NCBI RefSeq assembly: GCF_003334815.1
Contig: NZ_QOWO01000006.1
Direction: 5' to 3' (one strand)
Source of the DNA: Escherichia coli
GTDB taxonomy: Bacteria > Pseudomonadota > Gammaproteobacteria > Enterobacterales > Enterobacteriaceae
DNA: 64,000 nucleotides
Part shown: piece by piece, positions 22,261 through 38,054 of the stretch
Position numbering within the stretch: the stretch's first letter is position 1
Layout of the letters: every line of letters begins with the position of its first letter
Translations under genes and position numbers: made by a program
Notes under the pieces: model-generated
Told to the model about the DNA's origin: nothing
The model's input: the letters and a program-made list of their open reading frames with translations, nothing else
Databases searched by the model: none

Positions 22261-22596
22261 ATGGATAAAGAACGCATCATTCAGGAATTTGTGCCCGGCA
22301 AACAGGTCACACTGGCGCATCTCATCGCGCATCCCGGTGAGGAACTGGCGAAGAAAATCGGCGTTCCGGATGCGGGCGCAATTGGCATTATGACGCTAAC
22401 TCCCGGCGAAACGGCGATGATCGCCGGTGATTTAGCGCTGAAAGCCGCTGATGTGCATATCGGTTTTCTCGACCGATTCAGCGGTGCATTGGTGATTTAT
22501 GGCTCGGTGGGCGCAGTAGAAGAAGCGTTATCACAAACCGTCAGCGGTTTAGGTCGCTTATTAAATTATACGCTTTGTGAAATGACCAAAAGTTAA
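22261..22596 (+). CDS. eutS: Ethanolamine-utilisation microcompartment shell protein EutS
   Basis: ORF track 22189..22596; start trimmed to [18 protein letters not shown]... (111 aa); BMC domain. Confidence 0.9.
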
Positions 22597-22608
22597 TACG
22601 AGGCATTC

Positions 22609-23088
22609 ATGAAACGAATTGCGTTTGTGGGTAGCGTCGGGGCAGGAAAAACAACGTTATTTAATGCGTTGCAGGGGAATTATACCCTCGCCAGAAAAAC
22701 ACAGGCCGTGGAATTTAATGATAAGGGCGATATTGATACGCCGGGTGAATATTTTAACCATCCCCGCTGGTATCACGCCTTAATTACCACGCTACAGGAT
22801 GTAGACATGCTGATCTTTGTCCATGGCGCAAATGACCCGGAAAGTCGGTTGCCTGCCGGGTTGCTGGATATTGGCGTCAGCAAACGGCAAATCGCCGTCA
22901 TCAGTAAAACGGACATGCCAGATGCTGACGTCGCCGCAACGCGAAAGTTATTGCTTGAGACGGGCTTCGAAGAGCCGATTTTCGAGCTAAACAGCCACGA
23001 CCCGCAAAGCGTGCAGCAACTGGTGGATTATCTGGCATCTCTCACCAAACAGGAGGAAGCAGGTGAAAAAACTCATCACAGCGAATGA
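22609..23088 (+). CDS. eutP: EutP/PduV-family GTPase-like protein
   Basis: 159-aa ORF with P-loop GSVGAGKTTL. Confidence 0.9.
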   Translation: MKRIAFVGSVGAGKTTLFNALQGNYTLARKTQAVEFNDKGDIDTPGEYFNHPRWYHALITTLQDVDMLIFVHGANDPESRLPAGLLDIGVSKRQIAVISKTDMPDADVAATRKLLLETGFEEPIFELNSHDPQSVQQLVDYLASLTKQEEAGEKTHHSE

Positions 23089-23764
23089 TATTCGTGAAGC
23101 ACACGCGCGCGGCGAACAGGCAATGTCCGTGGTTCTGCGCGCCAGCATTATTACCCCGGAAGCCCGTGAAGTGGCGGATCTACTGGGTTTTACCATCACC
23201 GAATGTGATGAATCGATCCCGGTAACGGCGTCCGTGCCCGCCAGCGTGCCAGCCGACAAAACCGAAAGCCAGCGCATCCGCGAAACCATCATTGCCCAGC
23301 TGCCGGAAGGCCAGTTTACCGAAAGCCTGGTCGCACAGCTGATGGAAAAAGTGATGAAGGAAAAACAGTCGCTGGAGCAGGGCGCAATGCAGCCGAGCTT
23401 CAAATCGGTGACCGGCAAAGGCGGCATCAAAGTGATTGATGGCAGTAGCGTCAAGTTTGGTCGTTTCGACGGCGCAGAGCCGCATTGCGTGGGCTTGACT
23501 GATCTTGTGACCGGAGACGACGGCAGCAGCATGGCCGCCGGTTTTATGCAGTGGGAGAACGCATTCTTCCCGTGGACCCTGAACTACGACGAAATCGACA
23601 TGGTGCTGGAAGGGGAGCTGCATGTTCGCCACGAAGGCCAAACCATGATCGCCAAAGCAGGCGACGTGATGTTTATCCCGAAAGGCTCCAGCATCGAATT
23701 TGGTACGACATCCAGCGTGAAATTCCTGTATGTCGCCTGGCCGGCTAACTGGCAATCCCTATGA
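23063..23764 (+). CDS. eutQ: EutQ cupin-domain protein (acetate kinase activity reported)
   Basis: 233-aa ORF; 26-nt overlap with eutP. Confidence 0.9.
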   Translation: MKKLITANDIREAHARGEQAMSVVLRASIITPEAREVADLLGFTITECDESIPVTASVPASVPADKTESQRIRETIIAQLPEGQFTESLVAQLMEKVMKEKQSLEQGAMQPSFKSVTGKGGIKVIDGSSVKFGRFDGAEPHCVGLTDLVTGDDGSSMAAGFMQWENAFFPWTLNYDEIDMVLEGELHVRHEGQTMIAKAGDVMFIPKGSSIEFGTTSSVKFLYVAWPANWQSL

Positions 23765-24564
23765 AAGATTTCATCACCGAAGCATGGCTAAGAGCGAACC
23801 ATACGCTCAGCGAAGGCGCAGAGATCCATCTCCCTGCGGACAGTCGCCTGACGCCCTCTGCCCGGGAGTTGCTGGAAAGCCGCCATCTGCGCATCAAGTT
23901 TATTGACGAGCAGGGCCGCCTGTTTGTTGACGATGAACAGCAGCAGCCGCAGCCCGTTCATGGGCTGACCAGTAGCGATGAACATCCGCAGGCGTGCTGC
24001 GAACTGTGTCGCCAGCCGGTGGCAAAAAAGCCGGATACGCTGACTCACCTGTCGGCGGAAAAAATGGTCGCCAAAAGCGATCCGCGTCTGGGTTTTCGCG
24101 CGGTTCTCGACAGCACCATTGCGCTGGCAGTGTGGCTGCAAATTGAACTGGCGGAACCGTGGCAGCCGTGGCTGGCGGATATCCGTTCGCGTCTTGGCAA
24201 CATTATGCGCGCCGATGCGCTGGGGGAACCGCTGGGCTGCCAGGCGATTGTCGGGCTTTCTGACGAAGATCTGCATCGGCTTTCTCATCAGCCGCTGCGC
24301 TATCTCGACCACGATCATCTGGTGCCGGAAGCCAGCCACGGGCGCGATGCTGCGTTGCTCAATCTGCTACGCACCAAAGTGCGGGAAACCGAAACCGTAG
24401 CGGCGCAGGTCTTTATCACCCGCAGCTTTGAAGTATTACGCCCGGACATTTTGCAGGCGCTGAACCGCCTTTCGAGCACGGTCTACGTGATGATGATCCT
24501 GAGCGTAACGAAGCAGCCGCTAACGGTGAAGCAGATCCAACAACGACTGGGGGAAACGCAATGA
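23761..24564 (+). CDS. eutT: Ethanolamine-utilisation corrinoid adenosyltransferase
   Basis: 267-aa ORF; ATGA start/stop overlap with eutQ. Confidence 0.9.
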
Positions 24565-25577
24565 TTATTGAACGTTGTCGTGAACTGGCGTTGCGAGCGC
24601 CCGCCAGAGTGGTTTTTCCGGATGCGTTAGACCAACGTGTGCTGAAAGCCGCGCAATATTTACATCAACAAGGTCTGGCAACGCCCATTCTGGTCGCCAA
24701 TCCGTTTGAACTTCGTCAGTTTGCGCTCAGTCACGGCGTGGCGATGGACGGGCTACAGGTGATTGATCCGCATGGCAACCTCGCAATGCGGGAAGAATTT
24801 GCTCATCGCTGGCTGGCCCGCGCGGGCGAAAAAACGCCGCCGGATGCGCTGGAAAAACTTACCGACCCTCTGATGTTCGCCGCAGCAATGGTCAGCGCCG
24901 GTAAAGCGGATGTCTGTATCGCGGGCAACCTCTCTTCCACGGCAAATGTGCTGCGTGCCGGATTACGCATTATCGGCTTGCAGCCAGGCTGTAAAACGCT
25001 CTCTTCCATTTTCCTGATGTTGCCACAGTACAGCGGCCCGGCGTTGGGCTTTGCCGATTGCAGCGTGGTGCCACAGCCGACGGCGGCGCAGCTGGCGGAT
25101 ATCGCGCTTGCCAGTGCCGAAACCTGGCGCGCCATCACCGGAGAAGAGCCGCGCGTGGCGATGCTGTCGTTTTCCAGCAATGGTAGCGCCCGTCACCCCT
25201 GTGTTGCTAACGTCCAGCAGGCGACAGAAATCGTCCGTGAGCGCGCACCAAAGCTGGTGGTGGATGGCGAGTTACAGTTTGACGCCGCCTTCGTGCCGGA
25301 AGTGGCGGCGCAAAAAGCGCCTGCCAGCCCGCTACAGGGCAAGGCCAATGTGATGGTTTTTCCGTCGCTGGAAGCCGGAAATATTGGTTACAAAATCGCA
25401 CAACGACTCGGCGGATATCGTGCCGTCGGGCCACTGATACAAGGACTTGCCGCGCCGATGCACGATCTCTCTCGTGGTTGTAGCGTGCAGGAAATTATCG
25501 AGCTGGCGCTGGTGGCAGCTGTGCCGCGTCAGACAGAAGTGAACCGCGAAAGCAGTTTACAAACACTGGTTGAATGA
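24561..25577 (+). CDS. eutD: Phosphotransacetylase of the eut operon
   Basis: 338-aa ORF; ATGA overlap with eutT. Confidence 0.9.
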
Positions 25578-25615
25578 ACGGTCCCGTTCTGGACCCTGAT
25601 AAAGAGGAAAGCACA

Positions 25616-25909
25616 ATGGAAGCATTAGGAATGATCGAAACCCGGGGCCTGGTTGCACTGATTGAGGCTTCTGACGCGATGGTGAAAGCTGCGCGCGTCA
25701 AGCTGGTTGGTGTTAAGCAGATTGGCGGCGGCCTGTGTACTGCCATGGTTCGTGGTGATGTTGCAGCCTGTAAAGCCGCGACCGATGCAGGTGCCGCAGC
25801 GGCACAGCGTATCGGCGAGCTGGTATCTGTACACGTTATCCCGCGTCCGCACGGCGACCTGGAAGAAGTCTTCCCGATCGGCCTGAAAGGCGATAGCAGC
25901 AACCTGTAA
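25616..25909 (+). CDS. eutM: BMC-H shell protein EutM
   Basis: ORF track 25574..25909; start trimmed to [22 protein letters not shown]... (97 aa) behind AAAGAGGAAA. Confidence 0.9.
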
Positions 25910-25918
25910 TCACCCTGT

Positions 25919-25960
25919 GTGACGTCGATTCGGGCGTCACGCTCTCTCCTTTTTCATTTT
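25919..25960 (+). other. Stem-loop followed by a U-rich tract between eutM and eutN
   Basis: GTGACG-(10 nt)-CGTCAC, then CTCTCTCCTTTTTCATTTT. Confidence 0.4.
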
Positions 25961-26015
25961 ACCTTCTGCGGAGGGTAGGGGGAGCTTTTACCTGAAATAC
26001 GCCACGGAGGCGGGT

Positions 26016-26303
26016 ATGAAACTGGCAGTCGTCACTGGACAAATTGTTTGTACCGTACGCCATCACGGACTGGCGCATGACAAATTGCTGATGGTGGAAA
26101 TGATTGATCCACAAGGTAATCCTGACGGGCAATGCGCCGTCGCCATCGACAATATTGGCGCGGGAACCGGGGAGTGGGTGTTACTGGTGAGTGGCAGTTC
26201 CGCCCGCCAGGCGCATAAAAGCGAAACGTCACCGGTCGATCTGTGCGTGATTGGCATTGTCGATGAGGTGGTGTCTGGCGGTCAGGTAATTTTCCACAAA
26301 TAA
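26016..26303 (+). CDS. eutN: BMC vertex (pentamer) protein EutN
   Basis: 95-aa ORF MKLAVVTGQIVCTVRH... Confidence 0.9.
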   Translation: MKLAVVTGQIVCTVRHHGLAHDKLLMVEMIDPQGNPDGQCAVAIDNIGAGTGEWVLLVSGSSARQAHKSETSPVDLCVIGIVDEVVSGGQVIFHK

Positions 26304-26314
26304 GGCAGAACATC

Positions 26315-27718
26315 ATGAATCAACAGGATATTGAACAGGTGGTGAAAGCGGTACTGCTGAAAATGCAAAGCAGTGACACGCCGTCCGCCGCCGTTCATGA
26401 GATGGGCGTTTTCGCGTCCCTGGATGACGCCGTTGCGGCAGCCAAAGTCGCCCAGCAAGGGTTAAAAAGCGTGGCAATGCGCCAGTTAGCCATTGCTGCC
26501 ATTCGTGAAGCAGGCGAAAAACACGCCAGAGATTTAGCGGAACTTGCCGTCAGTGAAACCGGCATGGGGCGCGTTGAAGATAAATTTGCAAAAAACGTCG
26601 CTCAGGCGCGCGGCACACCAGGCGTTGAGTGCCTCTCTCCGCAAGTGCTGACTGGCGACAACGGCCTGACCCTAATTGAAAACGCACCCTGGGGCGTGGT
26701 GGCTTCGGTGACGCCTTCCACTAACCCGGCGGCAACCGTAATTAACAACGCCATCAGCCTGATTGCCGCGGGCAACAGCGTCATTTTTGCCCCGCATCCG
26801 GCGGCGAAAAAAGTCTCCCAGCGGGCGATTACGCTGCTCAACCAGGCGATTGTTGCCGCAGGTGGGCCGGAAAACTTACTGGTTACTGTGGCAAATCCGG
26901 ATATCGAAACCGCGCAACGCTTGTTCAAGTTTCCGGGTATCGGCCTGCTGGTGGTAACCGGCGGCGAAGCGGTAGTAGAAGCGGCGCGTAAACACACCAA
27001 TAAACGTCTGATTGCCGCAGGCGCTGGCAACCCGCCGGTAGTGGTGGATGAAACCGCCGACCTCGCCCGTGCCGCTCAGTCCATCGTCAAAGGCGCTTCT
27101 TTCGATAACAACATCATTTGTGCCGACGAAAAGGTACTGATTGTTGTTGATAGCGTAGCCGATGAACTGATGCGTCTGATGGAAGGCCAGCACGCGGTGA
27201 AACTGACCGCAGAACAGGCGCAGCAGCTGCAACCGGTGTTGCTGAAAAATATCGACGAGCGCGGAAAAGGCACCGTCAGCCGTGACTGGGTTGGTCGCGA
27301 CGCAGGCAAAATCGCGGCGGCAATCGGCCTTAAAGTTCCGCAAGAAACGCGCCTGCTGTTTGTGGAAACCACCGCAGAACATCCGTTTGCCGTGACTGAA
27401 CTGATGATGCCGGTGTTGCCCGTCGTGCGCGTCGCCAACGTGGCGGATGCCATTGCGCTAGCGGTGAAACTGGAAGGCGGTTGCCACCACACGGCGGCAA
27501 TGCACTCGCGCAACATCGAAAACATGAACCAGATGGCGAATGCTATTGATACCAGCATTTTCGTTAAGAACGGACCGTGCATTGCCGGGCTGGGGCTGGG
27601 CGGGGAAGGCTGGACCACCATGACCATCACCACGCCAACCGGTGAAGGGGTAACCAGCGCGCGTACGTTTGTCCGTCTGCGTCGCTGTGTATTAGTCGAT
27701 GCGTTTCGCATTGTTTAA
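26315..27718 (+). CDS. eutE: CoA-acylating acetaldehyde dehydrogenase
   Basis: 467-aa ORF, aldehyde dehydrogenase family. Confidence 0.92.
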   Translation: MNQQDIEQVVKAVLLKMQSSDTPSAAVHEMGVFASLDDAVAAAKVAQQGLKSVAMRQLAIAAIREAGEKHARDLAELAVSETGMGRVEDKFAKNVAQARGTPGVECLSPQVLTGDNGLTLIENAPWGVVASVTPSTNPAATVINNAISLIAAGNSVIFAPHPAAKKVSQRAITLLNQAIVAAGGPENLLVTVANPDIETAQRLFKFPGIGLLVVTGGEAVVEAARKHTNKRLIAAGAGNPPVVVDETADLARAAQSIVKGASFDNNIICADEKVLIVVDSVADELMRLMEGQHAVKLTAEQAQQLQPVLLKNIDERGKGTVSRDWVGRDAGKIAAAIGLKVPQETRLLFVETTAEHPFAVTELMMPVLPVVRVANVADAIALAVKLEGGCHHTAAMHSRNIENMNQMANAIDTSIFVKNGPCIAGLGLGGEGWTTMTITTPTGEGVTSARTFVRLRRCVLVDAFRIV

Positions 27719-27728
27719 GGAGTAACAG

Positions 27729-28565
27729 ATGGCGCACGACGAACAATGGCTCACCCCACGTCTGCAAACGGCGGCAACGCTGTGTAACCAGACGCCCGCC
27801 GCGACGGAATCTCCGCTGTGGCTGGGGGTGGATCTGGGCACCTGCGATGTGGTGTCGATGGTTGTCGACCGCGACGGTCAGCCAGTGGCGGTATGCCTCG
27901 ACTGGGCCGATGTGGTTCGCGACGGCATCGTCTGGGATTTCTTCGGCGCTGTCACCATTGTTCGTCGCCATCTCGACACGCTCGAGCAGCAATTCGGTCG
28001 TCGTTTTAGCCATGCGGCGACTTCATTTCCTCCAGGTACGGACCCGCGTATTTCCATCAACGTGCTGGAATCTGCCGGACTGGAAGTGAGCCATGTGCTG
28101 GATGAGCCAACCGCAGTTGCGGATCTGCTGCAACTGGACAACGCCGGTGTAGTGGATATCGGCGGCGGCACTACCGGCATTGCCATCGTGAAAAAGGGCA
28201 AGGTGACGTACTCGGCGGATGAAGCCACCGGCGGACATCACATCTCTCTGACTCTCGCCGGAAATCGCCGTATTTCGCTGGAAGAGGCGGAGCAGTACAA
28301 GCGCGGTCACGGTGAAGAGATTTGGCCTGCGGTGAAACCGGTGTACGAAAAAATGGCGGACATTGTCGCCCGGCATATTGAAGGGCAGGGCATTACTGAT
28401 TTATGGCTGGCGGGCGGCTCTTGTATGCAACCGGGCGTGGCGGAACTGTTTCGCAAACAATTCCCGGCGTTACAGGTGCATTTACCGCAGCACAGTTTGT
28501 TTATGACCCCGCTGGCGATCGCCAGTAGTGGGCGAGAGAAAGCGGAGGGGCTATATGCAAAATGA
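27729..28565 (+). CDS. eutJ: EutJ chaperone-like protein (actin/Hsp70 fold)
   Basis: 278-aa ORF. Confidence 0.9.
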   Translation: MAHDEQWLTPRLQTAATLCNQTPAATESPLWLGVDLGTCDVVSMVVDRDGQPVAVCLDWADVVRDGIVWDFFGAVTIVRRHLDTLEQQFGRRFSHAATSFPPGTDPRISINVLESAGLEVSHVLDEPTAVADLLQLDNAGVVDIGGGTTGIAIVKKGKVTYSADEATGGHHISLTLAGNRRISLEEAEQYKRGHGEEIWPAVKPVYEKMADIVARHIEGQGITDLWLAGGSCMQPGVAELFRKQFPALQVHLPQHSLFMTPLAIASSGREKAEGLYAK

Positions 28566-29742
28566 ATTGCAGACCGCGCTCTTTCAGGCGTTCGATACCC
28601 TGAATCTGCAACGGGTAAAAACATTTAGCGTTCCACCGGTGACGCTTTGCGGTCCGGGCTCGGTGAGCAGTTGCGGACAGCAAGCGCAAACGCGTGGGCT
28701 GAAACATCTGTTCGTGATGGCAGACAGCTTTTTGCATCAGGCAGGGATGACCGCCGGGCTGACGCGTAGCCTGACCGTTAAAGGTATCGCCATGACGCTC
28801 TGGCCATGTCCGGTGGGCGAACCGTGCATTACCGACGTGTGTGCAGCCGTGGCGCAGTTGCGTGAGTCAGGCTGTGATGGGGTGATCGCGTTTGGCGGCG
28901 GCTCGGTGCTGGATGCGGCGAAAGCCGTGACGTTGCTGGTGACGAACCCGGATAGCACGCTGGCAGAGATGTCAGAAACCAGCGTTCTGCAACCGCGCTT
29001 GCCGCTGATTGCCATTCCAACTACCGCAGGAACCGGCTCTGAAACCACCAATGTAACGGTGATTATCGACGCGGTGAGCGGGCGCAAGCAGGTGTTAGCC
29101 CATGCCTCGCTGATGCCGGATGTGGCGATCCTCGACGCCGCATTGACCGAAGGTGTGCCGTCGCATGTCACGGCGATGACCGGCATTGATGCGTTAACCC
29201 ATGCCATTGAAGCATACAGCGCCCTGAACGCTACACCGTTTACCGACAGTCTGGCGATTGGTGCCATTGCGATGATTGGCAAATCGCTGCCGAAAGCGGT
29301 GGGCTACGGTCACGACCTTGCCGCGCGCGAGAGCATGTTGCTGGCTTCATGTATGGCGGGAATGGCGTTTTCCAGTGCGGGTCTTGGGTTGTGCCACGCG
29401 ATGGCGCATCAGCCGGGCGCGGCGCTGCATATTCCGCACGGTCTCGCGAACGCCATGTTGCTGCCAACGGTGATGGAATTTAACCGGATGGTTTGTCGTG
29501 AACGCTTTAGTCAGATTGGTCGGGCACTGCGAACTAAAAAATCCGACGATCGTGACGCTATTAACGCGGTAAGTGAGCTGATTGCGGAAGTTGGGATTGG
29601 TAAACGACTGGGCGATGTTGGTGCGACATCTGCGCATTACGGCGCATGGGCGCAGGCCGCGCTGGAAGATATTTGTCTGCGCAGTAACCCGCGTACCGCC
29701 AGCCTGGAGCAGATTGTCGGCCTGTACGCAGCGGCGCAATAA
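28555..29742 (+). CDS. eutG: Iron-containing alcohol dehydrogenase EutG
   Basis: ORF track 28528..29742; start trimmed to MQNELQTALFQAFD... (395 aa); overlaps the eutJ stop by 11 nt. Confidence 0.9.
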   Translation: MQNELQTALFQAFDTLNLQRVKTFSVPPVTLCGPGSVSSCGQQAQTRGLKHLFVMADSFLHQAGMTAGLTRSLTVKGIAMTLWPCPVGEPCITDVCAAVAQLRESGCDGVIAFGGGSVLDAAKAVTLLVTNPDSTLAEMSETSVLQPRLPLIAIPTTAGTGSETTNVTVIIDAVSGRKQVLAHASLMPDVAILDAALTEGVPSHVTAMTGIDALTHAIEAYSALNATPFTDSLAIGAIAMIGKSLPKAVGYGHDLAARESMLLASCMAGMAFSSAGLGLCHAMAHQPGAALHIPHGLANAMLLPTVMEFNRMVCRERFSQIGRALRTKKSDDRDAINAVSELIAEVGIGKRLGDVGATSAHYGAWAQAALEDICLRSNPRTASLEQIVGLYAAAQ

Positions 29743-29744
29743 AT

Positions 29745-29930
<186 letters not shown>

Positions 29931-29958
29931 AAATAACAACTAACAGGGAGTAAAGGCG

Positions 29959-31185
29959 ATGGGAATTAACGAAATCATCATGTACATCATGATGTTCTTT
30001 ATGCTGATAGCTGCCGTAGACAGGATCCTGTCGCAGTTCGGCGGTTCTGCTCGTTTCCTCGGTAAGTTCGGTAAAAGTATCGAAGGATCAGGCGGTCAGT
30101 TCGAAGAAGGCTTTATGGCAATGGGCGCACTGGGCCTGGCGATGGTCGGTATGACCGCGCTGGCACCGGTACTGGCTCACGTTCTCGGGCCGGTAATTAT
30201 TCCGGTTTACGAAATGCTCGGCGCTAACCCATCGATGTTCGCCGGAACACTGCTGGCGTGCGATATGGGCGGCTTCTTCCTCGCCAAAGAGCTGGCGGGC
30301 GGCGACGTAGCCGCGTGGCTATACTCTGGGTTAATTCTCGGGTCGATGATGGGGCCAACGATTGTGTTTTCCATTCCGGTGGCGCTCGGCATTATCGAAC
30401 CTTCTGACCGTCGTTATCTGGCGCTCGGCGTGCTGGCGGGCATTGTGACCATTCCGATTGGTTGTATCGCTGGTGGTCTGGTTGCTATGTACTCCGGTGT
30501 GCAGATCAACGGCCAGCCGGTGGAATTCACTTTCGCCCTGATCCTGATGAACATGATCCCGGTGATCATTGTTGCGATTCTGGTGGCGCTGGGGCTGAAA
30601 TTCATCCCGGAAAAAATGATCAACGGCTTCCAGATCTTCGCCAAATTCCTCGTTGCATTGATCACCCTCGGTCTTGCCGCTGCGGTAGTGAAATTCCTGC
30701 TTGGCTGGGAACTGATCCCCGGTCTGGATCCTATCTTTATGGCCCCTGGCGATAAACCCGGTGAGGTGATGCGCGCCATTGAAGTTATCGGTTCTATCTC
30801 CTGCGTTCTGTTAGGGGCGTATCCGATGGTGCTGCTGCTGACTCGCTGGTTTGAAAAACCGCTGATGAGCGTCGGTAAAGTACTGAATATGAACAACATC
30901 GCGGCAGCCGGCATGGTGGCAACGCTTGCCAACAACATCCCGATGTTCGGCATGATGAAGCAGATGGATACCCGCGGCAAAGTCATCAACTGCGCCTTCG
31001 CCGTTTCCGCTGCTTTCGCCCTGGGCGACCACTTAGGCTTCGCCGCTGCCAACATGAACGCCATGATCTTCCCGATGATTGTCGGCAAGTTGATCGGCGG
31101 CGTAACGGCGATTGGCGTGGCGATGATGCTGGTGCCAAAAGAAGACGCGACCGCGACTAAAACCGAAGCGGAGGCACAATCGTGA
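29959..31185 (+). CDS. eutH: Ethanolamine permease EutH
   Basis: 408-aa polytopic membrane ORF. Confidence 0.92.
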   Translation: MGINEIIMYIMMFFMLIAAVDRILSQFGGSARFLGKFGKSIEGSGGQFEEGFMAMGALGLAMVGMTALAPVLAHVLGPVIIPVYEMLGANPSMFAGTLLACDMGGFFLAKELAGGDVAAWLYSGLILGSMMGPTIVFSIPVALGIIEPSDRRYLALGVLAGIVTIPIGCIAGGLVAMYSGVQINGQPVEFTFALILMNMIPVIIVAILVALGLKFIPEKMINGFQIFAKFLVALITLGLAAAVVKFLLGWELIPGLDPIFMAPGDKPGEVMRAIEVIGSISCVLLGAYPMVLLLTRWFEKPLMSVGKVLNMNNIAAAGMVATLANNIPMFGMMKQMDTRGKVINCAFAVSAAFALGDHLGFAAANMNAMIFPMIVGKLIGGVTAIGVAMMLVPKEDATATKTEAEAQS

Positions 31186-32585
31186 ACACTCGCCAGCTAT
31201 TGAGCGTCGGTATCGATATCGGCACCACCACCACCCAGGTGATTTTCTCCCGGCTGGAGCTGGTTAACCGTGCGGCGGTGTCGCAGGTGCCGCGCTACGA
31301 ATTCATTAAACGCGAAATTAGCTGGCAAAGTCCGGTGTTCTTTACCCCTGTCGATAAACAGGGCGGTTTAAAAGAAGCGGAACTGAAAACCTTAATACTC
31401 GAGCAATATCATGCTGCGGGTATTGAGCCGGAAAGCGTTGATTCTGGTGCCATCATCATCACCGGTGAAAGCGCGAAAACCCGCAATGCTCGCCCGGCGG
31501 TGATGGCGCTCTCTCAGTCGCTGGGCGATTTTGTCGTTGCCAGCGCCGGGCCGCACCTCGAATCCGTGATCGCCGGTCACGGAGCCGGGGCACAAACCCT
31601 TTCTGAACAACGGCTGTGTCGGGTACTGAATATCGACATCGGCGGTGGCACCGCGAACTACGCCCTGTTCGATGCCGGAAAAATCAGCGGCACTGCCTGC
31701 CTCAACGTCGGTGGTCGCCTGCTGGAAACCGACAGCCACGGGCGCGTGGTTTACGCTCATAAACCGGGGCAGATGATTGTGGATGAGTGCTTCGGTGCAG
31801 GCACCGACGCCCGTTCGCTGACCGGCGCGCAGCTGGTGCAGGTGACCCGGCGGATGGCAGAACTGATTGTCGAAGTGATTGACGGAACGCTCTCACCGCT
31901 CGCGCAGGCATTGATGCAAACCGGTTTGCTGCCCGCAGGTGTTACGCCCGAAATCATTACGCTTTCTGGCGGCGTGGGCGAATGTTATCGCCACCAGCCC
32001 GCCGACCCGTTCTGTTTTGCCGATATTGGCCCGCTGCTGGCAACTGCGCTGCATGACCATCCGCGCCTGCGTGAGATGAACGTACAGTTTCCGGCGCAAA
32101 CCGTGCGCGCCACGGTGATTGGCGCGGGCGCGCATACCCTTTCGCTCTCTGGCAGCACAATCTGGCTTGAGGGCGTACAACTGCCGCTGCGCAATTTGCC
32201 GGTGGCGATCCCGATTGATGAAACGGATCTGGTGGGGGCCTGGCAACAGGCGCTGATTCAGCTGGATCTTGATCCCAAAACTGACGCGTACGTGCTGGCG
32301 CTTCCCGCCTCGCTGCCTGTGCGTTACGCCGCGGTACTGACGGTCATCAACGCGTTGGTCGATTTCGTCGCGCGTTTTCCGAATCCGCATCCCCTGCTGG
32401 TGGTGGCCGGGCAGGACTTTGGTAAAGCTCTGGGCATGTTGTTGCGCCCACAGCTACAACAACTCCCGTTGGCAGTCATTGACGAAGTGATTGTCCGCGC
32501 GGGGGACTATATCGACATTGGTACGCCTCTTTTTGGCGGATCGGTTGTGCCGGTGACGGTGAAATCACTCGCATTTCCTTCCTGA
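31182..32585 (+). CDS. eutA: Ethanolamine ammonia-lyase reactivating factor
   Basis: 467-aa ORF; ATGA overlap with eutH. Confidence 0.92.
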   Translation: MNTRQLLSVGIDIGTTTTQVIFSRLELVNRAAVSQVPRYEFIKREISWQSPVFFTPVDKQGGLKEAELKTLILEQYHAAGIEPESVDSGAIIITGESAKTRNARPAVMALSQSLGDFVVASAGPHLESVIAGHGAGAQTLSEQRLCRVLNIDIGGGTANYALFDAGKISGTACLNVGGRLLETDSHGRVVYAHKPGQMIVDECFGAGTDARSLTGAQLVQVTRRMAELIVEVIDGTLSPLAQALMQTGLLPAGVTPEIITLSGGVGECYRHQPADPFCFADIGPLLATALHDHPRLREMNVQFPAQTVRATVIGAGAHTLSLSGSTIWLEGVQLPLRNLPVAIPIDETDLVGAWQQALIQLDLDPKTDAYVLALPASLPVRYAAVLTVINALVDFVARFPNPHPLLVVAGQDFGKALGMLLRPQLQQLPLAVIDEVIVRAGDYIDIGTPLFGGSVVPVTVKSLAFPS

Positions 32586-32596
32586 GGGAACGACTT

Positions 32597-33958
32597 ATGA
32601 AACTAAAGACCACATTGTTCGGCAATGTATATCAGTTTAAGGATGTAAAAGAGGTGCTGGCTAAAGCCAACGAACTGCGTTCGGGGGATGTGCTGGCGGG
32701 CGTCGCAGCGGCAAGCTCACAGGAGCGCGTGGCGGCAAAGCAGGTGTTGTCGGAAATGACCGTAGCGGACATCCGCAATAATCCGGTGATTGCCTATGAA
32801 GATGACTGCGTGACGCGGCTGATTCAGGACGATGTTAACGAAACGGCCTACAACCAGATTAAAAACTGGAGCATCAGCGAACTGCGTGAGTATGTGCTGA
32901 GCGATGAAACCAGCGTGGACGACATTGCCTTTACCCGCAAAGGGCTGACCTCGGAAGTGGTCGCGGCGGTAGCGAAGATTTGCTCCAACGCGGACCTGAT
33001 CTACGGCGCGAAGAAAATGCCGGTAATCAAAAAGGCCAATACCACCATCGGTATTCCGGGCACCTTTAGCGCCCGTTTGCAGCCAAATGACACCCGTGAC
33101 GACGTGCAAAGTATCGCCGCGCAAATCTACGAAGGGCTTTCCTTCGGGGTGGGCGATGCGGTGATCGGCGTTAACCCGGTGACTGACGACGTGGAAAACT
33201 TAAGCCGCGTGTTGGATACCATCTATGGCGTGATCGACAAATTCAACATCCCAACTCAGGGCTGTGTACTGGCGCACGTCACCACCCAGATCGAAGCGAT
33301 CCGTCGTGGCGCACCGGGCGGGCTGATTTTCCAGAGTATCTGTGGCAGCGAAAAAGGGCTGAAAGAGTTTGGCGTGGAGCTGGCGATGCTCGACGAAGCG
33401 CGCGCAGTGGGCGCGGAGTTCAACCGTATCGCCGGGGAAAACTGCCTCTACTTCGAAACCGGACAAGGCTCTGCGCTATCCGCTGGCGCTAACTTCGGCG
33501 CAGACCAGGTAACGATGGAAGCACGTAACTACGGGCTGGCGCGTCATTACGATCCGTTTATCGTCAACACCGTGGTCGGCTTTATTGGGCCGGAGTATCT
33601 CTACAACGACCGCCAGATTATCCGTGCTGGCTTAGAAGATCACTTTATGGGCAAGCTGAGCGGCATCTCTATGGGCTGTGACTGCTGTTATACCAACCAC
33701 GCTGACGCTGACCAGAACCTCAACGAAAACCTGATGATCCTGCTCGCCACCGCAGGCTGCAACTACATCATGGGGATGCCGCTGGGTGATGACATCATGC
33801 TCAACTACCAGACCACCGCATTCCACGATACCGCCACTGTGCGTCAGTTACTCAACCTGCGCCCGTCACCGGAGTTTGAACGCTGGCTGGAAAGCATGGG
33901 CATTATGGCAAACGGTCGCCTGACCAAACGGGCGGGCGATCCGTCACTGTTCTTCTGA
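32597..33958 (+). CDS. eutB: Ethanolamine ammonia-lyase large subunit
   Basis: 453-aa ORF; starts 11 bp after the eutA stop. Confidence 0.95.
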   Translation: MKLKTTLFGNVYQFKDVKEVLAKANELRSGDVLAGVAAASSQERVAAKQVLSEMTVADIRNNPVIAYEDDCVTRLIQDDVNETAYNQIKNWSISELREYVLSDETSVDDIAFTRKGLTSEVVAAVAKICSNADLIYGAKKMPVIKKANTTIGIPGTFSARLQPNDTRDDVQSIAAQIYEGLSFGVGDAVIGVNPVTDDVENLSRVLDTIYGVIDKFNIPTQGCVLAHVTTQIEAIRRGAPGGLIFQSICGSEKGLKEFGVELAMLDEARAVGAEFNRIAGENCLYFETGQGSALSAGANFGADQVTMEARNYGLARHYDPFIVNTVVGFIGPEYLYNDRQIIRAGLEDHFMGKLSGISMGCDCCYTNHADADQNLNENLMILLATAGCNYIMGMPLGDDIMLNYQTTAFHDTATVRQLLNLRPSPEFERWLESMGIMANGRLTKRAGDPSLFF

Positions 33959-33978
33959 TGACGCGGAGATAACATATC

Positions 33979-34866
33979 ATGGATCAAAAACAGATTGAAG
34001 AAATTGTACGCAGCGTGATGGCGTCAATGGGACAAGCGGCCCCCGCGCCGTCAGAAGCAAAGTGCGCCACCACCAACTGTGCGGCACCGGTGACCTCGGA
34101 AAGCTGTGCGCTGGATTTAGGTTCCGCTGAAGCAAAAGCGTGGATTGGTGTTGAAAATCCGCATCGCGCAGACGTATTAACAGAACTGCGCCGCAGCACC
34201 GTGGCCCGCGTTTGTACCGGTCGTGCCGGTCCGCGTCCACGTACGCAGGCGCTGCTGCGTTTCCTGGCCGATCACTCTCGTTCGAAAGATACCGTACTGA
34301 AAGAAGTGCCGGAAGAGTGGGTGAAAGCGCAGGGCTTGCTGGAAGTACGCTCTGAAATTAGCGACAAAAATCTCTACCTGACTCGCCCGGATATGGGCCG
34401 CCGCCTGTGTGCAGAAGCTGTTGAAGCGCTGAAAGCGCAGTGTGTTGCCAATCCGGACGTACAGGTCGTTATTTCTGATGGCCTGTCAACTGATGCGATC
34501 ACCGTGAACTACGAAGAGATCCTGCCACCGCTGATGGCGGGCCTGAAACAGGCCGGGCTGAAAGTCGGTACACCATTCTTTGTTCGTTATGGTCGCGTGA
34601 AGATTGAAGATCAGATCGGTGAGATCCTCGGCGCGAAAGTAGTGATCCTGCTGGTGGGCGAACGTCCGGGGTTGGGTCAGTCAGAAAGCCTCTCCTGCTA
34701 CGCCGTTTACTCGCCGCGTATGGCGACCACCGTTGAGGCCGATCGCACCTGTATCTCTAACATTCACCAGGGCGGCACGCCGCCGGTTGAAGCCGCAGCC
34801 GTCATTGTGGATTTGGCGAAACGTATGCTGGAGCAGAAAGCATCCGGCATCAACATGACCCGATAA
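33979..34866 (+). CDS. eutC: Ethanolamine ammonia-lyase small subunit
   Basis: 295-aa ORF. Confidence 0.95.
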
Positions 34867-34875
34867 GGAGGCATC

Positions 34876-35535
34876 ATGCCAGCTTTAGATTTGATTCGAC
34901 CGTCTGTCACCGCTATGCGGGTGATTGCCTCCGTTAACGCCGATTTTGCGCGTGAACTGAAATTGCCGCCGCATATTCGTAGCCTCGGTCTGATTTCTGC
35001 CGACTCCGATGACGTCACCTACATTGCCGCTGATGAAGCGACCAAGCAGGCGATGGTGGAAGTGGTGTATGGCCGCTCGCTATATGCGGGCGCTGCACAC
35101 GGCCCGTCACCGACTGCCGGTGAAGTGCTGATTATGCTTGGTGGGCCAAACCCGGCGGAAGTGCGTGCAGGTCTGGATGCGATGATTGCGCATATTGAAA
35201 ATGGCGCAGCTTTCCAGTGGGCTAATGACGCGCAAGATACGGCATTCCTGGCACATGTAGTTTCGCGTACCGGTTCTTATCTCTCATCAACCGCCGGGAT
35301 CACGCTTGGCGATCCGATGGCGTATCTGGTGGCACCGCCGCTGGAAGCGACCTATGGCATTGATGCAGCCCTGAAGTCTGCCGACGTACAGCTGGCGACC
35401 TATGTCCCGCCACCGTCTGAAACCAACTACTCGGCAGCATTTTTAACCGGTAGCCAGGCAGCGTGTAAAGCAGCCTGTAACGCCTTTACCGATGCAGTGC
35501 TGGAAATCGCGCGTAATCCAATCCAGCGTGCGTAA
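34876..35535 (+). CDS. eutL: BMC-T (tandem-domain) shell protein EutL
   Basis: 219-aa ORF. Confidence 0.92.
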
Positions 35536-35547
35536 CGGAGGTTGCCG

Positions 35548-36048
35548 ATGATCAATGCACTGGGATTGCTGGAAGTGGACGGCATGGTCGCCGCGATAGA
35601 TGCAGCGGATGCCATGCTCAAAGCAGCTAACGTTCGTCTGCTCAGTCACGAAGTGCTTGACCCTGGTCGCTTAACGCTGGTGGTGGAAGGCGATCTGGCG
35701 GCGTGTCGTGCGGCGCTGGACGCAGGTTGTGCTGCCGCGATGCGTACCGGGCGTGTCATCAGCCGCAAGGAGATCGGTCGGCCAGACGATGACACCCAGT
35801 GGCTGGTTACTGGCTTTAACCGCCAGCCGAAGCAACCCGTAAGGGAACCCGACGCGCCAGTTATCGTCGCGGAATCTGCTGACGAGTTGTTGGCGCTGTT
35901 AACATCAGTACGTCAGGGAATGACGGCAGGAGAAGTGGCTGCCCACTTTGGCTGGCCGCTGGAAAAAGCCAGAAATGCGCTCGAACAGCTCTTTTCTGCC
36001 GGGACGTTACGTAAACGCAGTAGTCGTTATCGTCTCAAGCCCCATTAA
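35548..36048 (+). CDS. eutK: BMC shell protein EutK (BMC domain plus C-terminal helix-turn-helix)
   Basis: ORF track 35542..36048 opens at a TTG; trimmed to ATG 35548 (MINALGLLEVDGMVAAIDA..., 166 aa). Confidence 0.88.
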   Translation: MINALGLLEVDGMVAAIDAADAMLKAANVRLLSHEVLDPGRLTLVVEGDLAACRAALDAGCAAAMRTGRVISRKEIGRPDDDTQWLVTGFNRQPKQPVREPDAPVIVAESADELLALLTSVRQGMTAGEVAAHFGWPLEKARNALEQLFSAGTLRKRSSRYRLKPH

Positions 36049-36060
36049 CCTGTCGGAGGT

Positions 36061-36084
36061 GCCGGGTGTCCTACAACACCCGGC
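36061..36084 (+). other. Stable stem-loop just upstream of the eutR ribosome-binding site
   Basis: GCCGGGTGT-CCTACA-ACACCCGGC (9-bp perfect stem); no U-tract. Confidence 0.4.
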
Positions 36085-36093
36085 ATTAACATC

Positions 36094-37146
36094 ATGAAAA
36101 AGACCCGTACAGCCAATTTGCACCATCTTTATCATGAACCCTTACCCGAAAACCTGAAGCTCACGCCGAAGGTCGAAGTGGATAATGTTCATCAACGACA
36201 GACAACGGATGTCTATGAACATGCTTTAACGATTACCGCCTGGCAGCAGATTTACGATCAGCTGCATCCGGGCAAGTTTCATGGTGAATTTACGGAAATT
36301 CTACTCGATGATATTCAGGTTTTTCGTGAATACACCGGTCTGGCGCTGCGTCAGTCGTGCCTGGTCTGGCCGAACTCGTTCTGGTTTGGCATTCCGGCGA
36401 CGCGCGGTGAGCAGGGATTTATCGGTTCGCAATGTCTGGGAAGCGCGGAAATCGCCACCCGCCCTGGTGGCACTGAATTTGAACTGAGCACGCCGGATGA
36501 TTACACGATCCTGGGCGTGGTGCTTTCTGAAGATGTCATCACCCGGCAGGCTAACTTTTTGCATAACCCGGATCGGGTATTACATATGTTGCGTAACCAG
36601 TCGGCGCTGGAAGTGAAAGAGCAGCATAAAGCCGCGCTGTGGGGCTTTGTCCAACAGGCGCTGGCGACGTTTTGCGAGAATCCGGAAAATCTCCATCAGC
36701 CTGCAGTGCGAAAAGTGCTGGGGGATAATTTGCTAATGGCGATGGGGGCCATGCTGGAAGAAGCGCAACCAATGGTGACGGCGGAAAGCATCAGTCATCA
36801 GAGTTACCGTCGATTGCTTTCCCGCGCCCGTGAATATGTGCTGGAAAACATGTCCGAACCGGTGACGGTGCTGGATTTGTGTAATCAACTGCATGTCAGC
36901 CGCCGCACGCTACAAAACGCGTTTCACGCTATTTTAGGCATTGGCCCGAACGCGTGGCTGAAACGCATTCGCCTGAACGCCGTACGCCGCGAACTGATAA
37001 GTCCGTGGTCGCAAAGTATGACGGTAAAAGACGCCGCCATGCAGTGGGGATTCTGGCATCTGGGGCAATTTGCCACGGATTACCAGCAGCTGTTTTCCGA
37101 GAAGCCGTCACTGACGCTGCATCAGCGGATGCGGGAGTGGGGGTGA
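36094..37146 (+). CDS. eutR: AraC-family transcriptional activator of the eut operon
   Basis: 350-aa ORF; last gene of the operon. Confidence 0.92.
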
Positions 37147-37151
37147 GGGAG

Positions 37152-38054
<903 letters not shown>

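Follow-up and report, generated by a model that had tools for sequence, protein, structure and literature searches.

The eut operon of Escherichia coli, as carried on the 64,000-nt stretch of DNA analysed here (the window), contains between the genes for the major hexameric shell protein EutM and the pentameric vertex protein EutN a 106-nt spacer occupied by two abutting RNA hairpins, a linker of invariant sequence and the eutN ribosome-binding site (RBS), which is partly sequestered. The structure is real, stable and under selection. Judged from sequence comparison and predicted folding, these parts together would form, with a probability of roughly 0.45, a conserved single-copy RNA-level insulator that separates eutM, the most heavily expressed shell gene, from eutN, the least expressed one. 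The spacer is a new example of a familiar device, the intra-operon hairpin that tunes neighbouring cistrons, and not a new kind of element.

The spacer is bounded by the eutM coding sequence (25616-25909, plus strand; RefSeq annotation and translation), with its TAA stop codon at 25907-25909, and by that of eutN (26016-26303, plus strand; RefSeq annotation), whose product is needed in low amounts. Gene names follow the RefSeq annotation of the matching K-12 record, and positions 25600-26320 (721 nt compared) are 100% identical to E. coli K-12 and to many other strains. Hairpin 1 (25917-25942, plus strand), identified by folding energy, begins 8 nt past the eutM stop codon; its arms GUGUGACGUC and GGCGUCACGC pair positions 25917-25926 with 25933-25942 into a 10-bp stem around the 6-nt loop GAUUCG, and its conserved core is formed by the 8 bp joining 25919-25926 to 25933-25940. 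A preliminary description of this DNA had proposed a GTGACG/CGTCAC hairpin at this place, and both arms are indeed present (25919-25924 and 25935-25940) and pair with each other. That description had also called the stem short, which it is not, because the helix extends to 10 bp and is the longest (10 pairs, against at most 7 in the others) among the 20 terminator-like sites of a 16-kb consensus scan, a total showing no excess over shuffled sequences (18.1 +/- 5.1). The folding-energy calculation it had called for yields -17.4 kcal/mol in a 31-nt context, with a z-score of -4.5 relative to dinucleotide shuffles and one shuffle in 200 equally stable, a stable and non-random fold. The T-rich run it had placed behind the stem is likewise present (UCUCUCCUUUUUCAUUUU, 25943-25960), but it is interrupted by C and lies mostly inside a second hairpin instead of forming a free tail.

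This second, extended hairpin, absent from the preliminary description, spans 25944-25984, folds at about -17 kcal/mol and adjoins hairpin 1 with a linker of 0-1 nt. The former U-rich tail is the pyrimidine-rich run (U)CUCUCCU UUUUCAUUU (25943-25959, plus strand), which minimum free energy (MFE), centroid and RNAalifold consensus structures divide into the 5' outer arm of hairpin 2 (25944-25950, or 25941-25948 in a slipped register) and an asymmetric internal loop (25951-25959) that lies wholly on the 5' side. It is followed on the same strand by the inner stem-loop UACCUUC-UGCG-GAGGGUA (25960-25977), in which two pairs carry compensatory double changes, and by the 3' outer arm GGGGGAG(C) (25978-25985), which pairs with CUCUCC; the outer stem thus joins CUCUCCU to AGGGGGAG (25978-84). 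As a unit, the 81-nt two-hairpin module folds at -34.7 kcal/mol (z = -4.5). Beyond it the sequence reads C-UUUU-ACCUGAAAUAC and then enters a small hairpin containing the eutN Shine-Dalgarno sequence. Alignment, intergenic sequences and covariance-model alignments define UUUU together with the invariant single-stranded linker UUUUACCUGAAAUAC (25986-26000, plus strand), a candidate endonuclease, standby or weak-termination site. Within this region, an ACCUGAA motif at about -25 from the eutN start is retained even in Buttiauxella and Entomohabitans and is absent from the Yokenella version of the spacer. The eutN initiation region (26001-26018, plus strand), assigned from folds and opening energy, is the hairpin GCC-ACGGA-GGC, within which lies the Shine-Dalgarno GGAGG (26006-26010), upstream of the ATG at 26016.

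Several other candidate features of the spacer were rejected. A long-range helix between the bases following the eutM stop codon and the eutN start (ACCC/GGGU in E. coli) appears in the MFE structure and is not claimed, because its register and sequence differ in Citrobacter, and a third RNAalifold helix (UACC/GGUA) is invariant, contains two breaks and is without covariation. A small open reading frame (ORF) was discounted as well: the gap has no ATG, and a GTG-initiated frame of 19 codons is broken in Citrobacter by loop insertions and deletions that are not multiples of three. A CRP-like TGTGA...TCAC site (with a spacing of 15, not 6) and an RfaH ops-like GGTAG were dismissed by eye.

Within the species, the spacer is present in 5408 of 5426 complete E. 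coli genomes, at one place in each (blastn, word size 11, E <= 0.01), and only about a dozen of 5409 matching E. coli records fall below 95% identity to the window. Being single-copy, it cannot be a repetitive extragenic palindromic (REP) element or another dispersed repeat; the REP consensus (GCCGGATG... / ...CATCCGGC) was not found in 25910-26015, and the RepRanger supplements hold no eut entries. A covariance model built from the alignment has a single match in the window and finds the Buttiauxella and Entomohabitans versions at E-values of 5e-6 to 4e-4. The Rfam 15 covariance models gave no match in 25900-26020 at E <= 10, and no earlier description of the eutM-eutN spacer was found in the searchable literature. 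Six single-nucleotide polymorphisms at five distinct positions distinguish four divergent E. coli strains, and all but one are unpaired or preserve pairing: 25915, 25957 and 25967 are unpaired (the last, T>C in the loop of hairpin 2, occurring in two strains), 25981 G>A turns a U.G into a U-A pair in the 3' outer arm of hairpin 2, and 25949 C>A disrupts pairing in just one of the two slipped registers.

Beyond the species, the E. coli-type element is found in Escherichia spp., the Citrobacter freundii group, Citrobacter sp. R56, NCU1 and Awk 4, and Klebsiella spallanzanii, and a diverged version occurs in Buttiauxella, Entomohabitans and Yokenella, all three of which keep hairpin 1, with hairpin 2 missing in Buttiauxella. 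The conservation bears directly on an improbable alternative, namely that the gap has no dedicated function, being a tolerated non-coding spot that collects palindromes and in which only the last ~20 nt (the eutN RBS) matter. Against it, E. coli and the C. freundii group agree at 65-67 of 71 positions (92-94%) between CUCUCC and the eutN start, whereas four-fold sites of eutM and eutN are only ~60% identical in the same comparison (Fisher p = 2e-6), and hairpin 1 is still present in Buttiauxella, at a distance at which identity of four-fold sites has dropped to ~45-55%. Preservation of hairpin 2 by compensatory changes points the same way. CUCUCC is unchanged in 15 of 15 aligned sequences. RNAalifold, applied to these 15 sequences, recovers both hairpins, with standard pairs in 98.5% of pair cells as against 50-65% with slid partners. 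Compensatory double changes affect three pairs: the closing pair of hairpin 2 (GC, CG, UG) and two inner-stem pairs, whose changes (AU to GC and CG to UA) occur in Citrobacter sp. R56, Citrobacter sp. NCU1 and K. spallanzanii. All 13 distinct variants of hairpin 1, drawn from six genera, keep its 8-bp core paired, with one position varying among U.G, C-G and U-A and another between G-C and A-U; the length of the loop differs widely between genera. The covariation is supportive rather than conclusive, because independent events are few and the UGACG/CGUCA core never varies.

The position of the structure is regular. A genome scan with EutN returned 48 loci, 43 of which have eutM directly before eutN, and the gap measures 52-211 nt in all 43. 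All 40 distinct gap sequences fold into stable hairpins (median z -2.3), and in 33 of them the first hairpin of -8 kcal/mol or lower starts no more than 15 nt past the eutM stop codon (median +9.5), most often after 6-10 nt. Every genus examined thus has a stable hairpin at this point, be it the E. coli-type element, REP palindromes or unrelated hairpins, so that the position occupied is that of the mRNA-stabilising class: directly 3' of the more abundant cistron, and conserved. That the eutM-eutN gap is never shorter than 52 nt, when nine other non-overlapping eut junctions (eutG-eutH aside) measure 9-45 nt, also speaks against a functionless spacer.

What fills the gap, on the other hand, is exchanged wholesale between sister genera, as a merely tolerated site would predict. 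REP palindromes, or the bacterial interspersed mosaic elements (BIMEs) that contain them (GCCGGATAAG.../...CATCCGGC), fill it in Salmonella, C. koseri, C. amalonaticus and C. sedlakii, and also in K. oxytoca, K. michiganensis, K. grimontii, K. pneumoniae, Pseudocitrobacter and Pluralibacter, and unrelated GC-rich hairpins occupy it in Intestinirhabdus, Pseudomonas and Rhodocyclaceae, while the final CACGGAGGCGGGUAUG is kept in most Enterobacteriaceae loci whether or not they carry the element. The same replacement in genera that retain eutM-eutN, together with the loss of hairpin 2 in Buttiauxella, does not fit a riboswitch or ligand-sensing leader, whose multi-helix core and invariant unpaired nucleotides would accompany the regulated genes throughout. 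A functionless gap would further be in keeping with the REPs that fill the other large gap of the operon, eutG-eutH, and with the IS911 copy that has entered the spacer of one E. coli strain. In that strain (90-1; locus L055, 1584-2863) the insertion lies at the equivalent of 25987/25988, inside CUUUU, and separates eutM and both hairpins from the eutN RBS.

The REP-bearing loci display some further regularities. In those of Salmonella and Klebsiella (L027, L029-L031 and L035 of the scan) eutM ends in TGA, and the gaps are 111 or 114 nt, multiples of three, with 112 nt in S. arizonae; an annotation survey lists a fused 690-bp eutM-eutN ORF in Salmonella Typhi (PMC3548604). The eutG-eutH gap of the window (29743-29958, 216 nt) is itself a BIME, composed of two tandem copies of ~100 nt that are 96.6% identical over 88 nt, each with two REP-type palindromes (GCCGGATGCGACGC..., GTAGGGCGGATAAGGCG...), and it folds at -93.5 kcal/mol (z -4.1).

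REP/BIME elements, such as that of malE-malF in E. coli, are among the closest known systems. The spacer resembles them in that stable hairpins directly follow the upstream, more strongly expressed cistron of a pair within an operon, and REPs occupy the very same gap in sister genera as well as eutG-eutH of the window; it differs in being unrelated in sequence to the REP consensus, single-copy and vertically conserved, and in having an added second hairpin and the invariant linker. REP elements are reported to stabilise upstream mRNA and to affect translation when located no more than 15 nt from a stop codon (PMC12306157). A role of the spacer in stability or insulation is plausible; an RNA stability or processing element was the second of two options in the preliminary description, either of which was to raise eutM relative to the downstream genes.

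Because so much of the primary sequence is retained, it may also be asked whether the element is recognised as such. One quite improbable possibility is that a protein, a ribonuclease or a small RNA binds the UGACG/CGUCA stem, the CUCUCC/GGGGAG helix or the UUUUACCUGAA linker and thereby tunes eutN and the genes downstream, candidate ribonucleases being RNase III, acting on the stacked helices, and RNase E, cutting between GC and UUUU. Primary sequence that is invariant over long evolutionary distances, beyond what pairing demands, would suit such recognition, as would the abutting hairpins, which might stack to give a single long helix interrupted by an asymmetric internal loop, and the GGA in the loop of the RBS hairpin. 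Set against this, the element is without an Rfam family; it is dispensable in Salmonella and Klebsiella, which have REPs in the gap, and its likeness to RNase III, RNase E and CsrA sites was judged by eye only. Phage T7 RNase III signals are hairpins with an asymmetric internal loop, and their processing leaves a protective 3' hairpin. Compared with them, hairpin 2 is similar in its intercistronic position and in its succession of lower stem, asymmetric internal loop and upper stem, and dissimilar in that its internal loop lies entirely on the 5' side and its helices are short. It is conceivable, and in our view rather unlikely, that the spacer is a dedicated eut-specific cis-regulatory RNA motif, built from stacked hairpins, a UGACG/CGUCA plus CUCUCC/GGGGAG core and the UUUUACCUGAA linker, which a ribonuclease, protein or small RNA reads to set the EutM:EutN ratio, with REPs recruited as substitutes in sister genera.

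The alternative closest to the preliminary description, which had suggested a partial terminator, is a leaky Rho-independent terminator after hairpin 1 or hairpin 2 that lowers eutN and all genes downstream relative to eutS-eutM; we consider it unlikely, and the evidence does not support a significant terminator. The stem of hairpin 1 is terminator-like in that its 10 bp, six GC pairs and 6-nt loop agree with the usual limits (~5-14 bp, 3-8 nt loop), its length is the greatest in the 16-kb scan, and a UUUU directly follows the GC-rich outer stem of hairpin 2. The tail of hairpin 1, UCUCUCCUUUUU, passes a loose scan rule of five T in eight, but has only three U in its first 7 nt. On a d'Aubenton-Carafa type score d, whose values here are approximate, hairpin 1 reaches a borderline 0.6, compared with 32-43 for strong control terminators, and hairpin 2 scores -21 to -0.6. 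These scores are borderline because the U-rich tail is interrupted by C, and it is not conserved: orthologous hairpin-1 tails range from -31 in Citrobacter (-31 to -10) to +21 in one Buttiauxella, where some versions carry a good U-tail (UUUCUUU), and there is no U-tract in Yokenella or in any REP-bearing gap. Since the tails vary or lack U, the conserved feature is a stable hairpin near the stop codon and not a hairpin with a U-tract; in the window, moreover, the T-rich run is tied up in hairpin 2. The spacer shares with intrinsic terminators and attenuators a 10-bp GC-rich stem, a 6-nt loop, a pyrimidine- and U-rich stretch and the UUUU after hairpin 2, and departs from them in its C-broken, paired U-tract, its unconserved tail and, in the published data, downstream mRNA and proteins that are not durably reduced.

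Published expression data allow the question to be addressed from the side of the products. No sense-strand 3' end falls in the gap in the Term-seq map of Adams et al. 2021 (PMC7815308), which was obtained from LB and M63 glucose cultures, in which the eut operon is uninduced. In strain LF82, gene-level RNA-seq (PMC6379400) gives, as reads per kilobase per million (RPKM) in basal/bile-salt-induced cells, 108/357 for eutD, 55/177 for eutM, 5/62 for eutN, 14/149 for eutE, 13/147 for eutJ, 35/168 for eutG, 106/514 for eutH and 61/358 for eutB, so that eutM mRNA is 3- to 11-fold above eutN mRNA. The basal values contain a 4- to 11-fold step after eutM, with eutD and eutM (108 and 55) standing over eutN, eutE and eutJ (5, 14 and 13), as a terminator would leave. 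The profile is nevertheless one of a local dip at eutN that recovers downstream: in induced cells eutE, eutJ and eutG reach 147-168 RPKM, close to eutM at 177, and the range over eutE/J/G/H/A/B is 147-514, equal to or above eutM. That induced downstream mRNA equals or exceeds that of eutM argues strongly against an efficient transcription terminator; a weak one, or one that matters for basal transcripts only, may exist. The basal LF82 profile is uneven elsewhere in the operon as well (22261-37146 in the window), with steps from 13 to 108 at eutD, 55 to 5 at eutN, 35 to 106 at eutH and 37 to 142 at eutR (PMC6379400), which may point to promoters inside the operon or to mRNA segments of differing stability.

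At the protein level, a quantitative proteomic analysis of E. coli K-12 W3110 cultures supplied with ethanolamine and B12 (PMC11334477) places EutQ at 100, EutM at 96, EutD at 10 and EutN at 1 on a relative scale, EutM being ~100 times as abundant as EutN, and finds EutE at 27, EutB at 37, EutC at 24 and EutL at 39. Values of 24-39 for EutE, EutB, EutC and EutL where EutM stands at 96 again argue against a terminator that would lower everything beyond the spacer. The large EutM:EutN ratio is probably better explained by translation than by termination. Opening energies, computed for -18 to +13 around each eut start codon, are 6.4 kcal/mol for eutM, 7.0 for eutE and 13.3 for eutN, which is among the highest of the operon, and eutN exceeds both eutM and eutE in all 34 scorable loci whatever fills the gap, although these loci are not phylogenetically independent (medians 6.7 for eutM, 11.4 for eutN and 6.7 for eutE). 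The 10-fold lower level of EutD, encoded upstream of eutM, suggests that translation, and not transcript dosage, sets most of the differences in abundance. It is a general principle of operons that the ratio of subunits is set by translational uncoupling and by structured start sites. The spacer resembles such arrangements in the ~100-fold difference in output between eutM and eutN and in a sequestered eutN start that is a conserved feature, and differs from them in that the eutN Shine-Dalgarno (GGAGG, 5-nt spacing) is itself strong and the link between spacer and eutN translation is a predicted one.

Under the insulator reading favoured here, whose every mechanistic step we infer, the hairpin placed 6-10 nt past the eutM stop codon, together with hairpin 2, would block ribosomes finishing eutM from sliding on to eutN or re-initiating there. 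After termination, 70S ribosomes can scan, and structure blocks scanning. Because post-eutM ribosomes would be stopped by the hairpins, eutN would have to initiate independently at its structured, poorly accessible start, and the vertex protein would be held ~100-fold below EutM. The poorly translated eutN segment might then be more exposed to endonucleases, which would be consistent with the RNA-seq dip at eutN, and after cleavage both hairpins could keep 3' exonucleases from degrading the upstream ...eutD-eutM segment, the part that REPs play elsewhere. Intrinsic termination at hairpin 1 or at hairpin 2, the latter with UUUU as its tail, would contribute weakly at most. As a possible second boundary of a stable eutM segment, a 5' hairpin in the eutD-eutM spacer was considered and rejected, the region being unstructured (z +1.3).

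Several observations weigh against the insulator. According to reports cited in PMC12306157, expression of the upstream gene is lowered, and not raised, when a hairpin lies no more than 15 nt from its stop codon, which counts against hairpin 1 simply raising EutM. REPs may merely accumulate in any gap that tolerates them, as in eutG-eutH, so their presence in sister-genus gaps is weak evidence of a shared function. Three or four lineages supply all of the covariation, to which the invariant core of hairpin 1 adds no information. The LF82 data are gene-level, come from a different strain than the window and concern low expression. Across 12 Eut proteins, opening energy and abundance are not significantly correlated (rho = -0.47, p = 0.13). 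Finally, EutD, which is encoded upstream of eutM, is also 10-fold below EutM, and the level of EutM would therefore be mainly translational and unexplained by 3' protection.

A last and very improbable explanation is that the sequence is conserved for the sake of the opposite strand, where it would act as a promoter or form the 5' part of an antisense RNA overlapping the end of eutM. A weak minus-strand 3' end inside eutM, close to 25849 (946 reads; MG1655, LB, OD (optical density) 0.4; genome 2572217(+); PMC7815308 supplementary file 1), implies some antisense transcription from the spacer or the eutN side, and the minus strand carries a TAAAAT hexamer, the complement of 25956-25961. The signal is, however, near the detection floor, and E. 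coli commonly shows antisense transcription at a weak level; there is no acceptable -35 element, the hexamer is unconserved in Citrobacter (TAATGT), and a promoter scan found nothing on the minus strand at the spacer.

Spacings of the upstream eut genes are, in order, 12, -26, -4, -4 and 38 nt before the 106 nt of eutM-eutN, so the preliminary description was right to call this the only sizeable gap among them; the largest gap of the operon as a whole is eutG-eutH. Upstream of the spacer, an in-frame ATG at 25574 would give a 111-aa EutM overlapping the eutD stop codon (25574-25615), whereas the RefSeq start at 25616 (97 aa) is preceded by an AGAGGA Shine-Dalgarno; the eutM length of 335 bp in the LF82 table (PMC6379400) corresponds to the longer ORF. 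Further downstream, eutA ends at 32585 and eutB starts at 32597, so that the operon is uninterrupted where the K-12 reference has the 6.8-kb CPZ-55 prophage (intZ, yffL-yffS). In the absence of CPZ-55 the strain of the window is not K-12-like at this junction, despite ~99.96% identity elsewhere. The eutR and hemF genes converge with 5 nt between their stop codons (K-12 annotation; window ~37146-37152), too few for a terminator hairpin to fit.

The conceptual gain is modest, because the class of mechanism is well known and the case would be one of fairly ordinary operon fine-tuning. Shell assembly requires many hexamers and few pentamers, however, and shell stoichiometry is critical both for microcompartment assembly and for engineered Eut compartments. 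If the spacer does set the EutM:EutN ratio, it would represent a small, naturally occurring part with which the outputs of adjacent genes of an operon can be set ~100-fold apart, and it would explain the mis-assembly of constructs that lack native intergenic regions. In addition, the exchange of the element for REPs at eutM-eutN in sister genera provides a natural experiment on whether REPs inside operons have a function or are simply tolerated.

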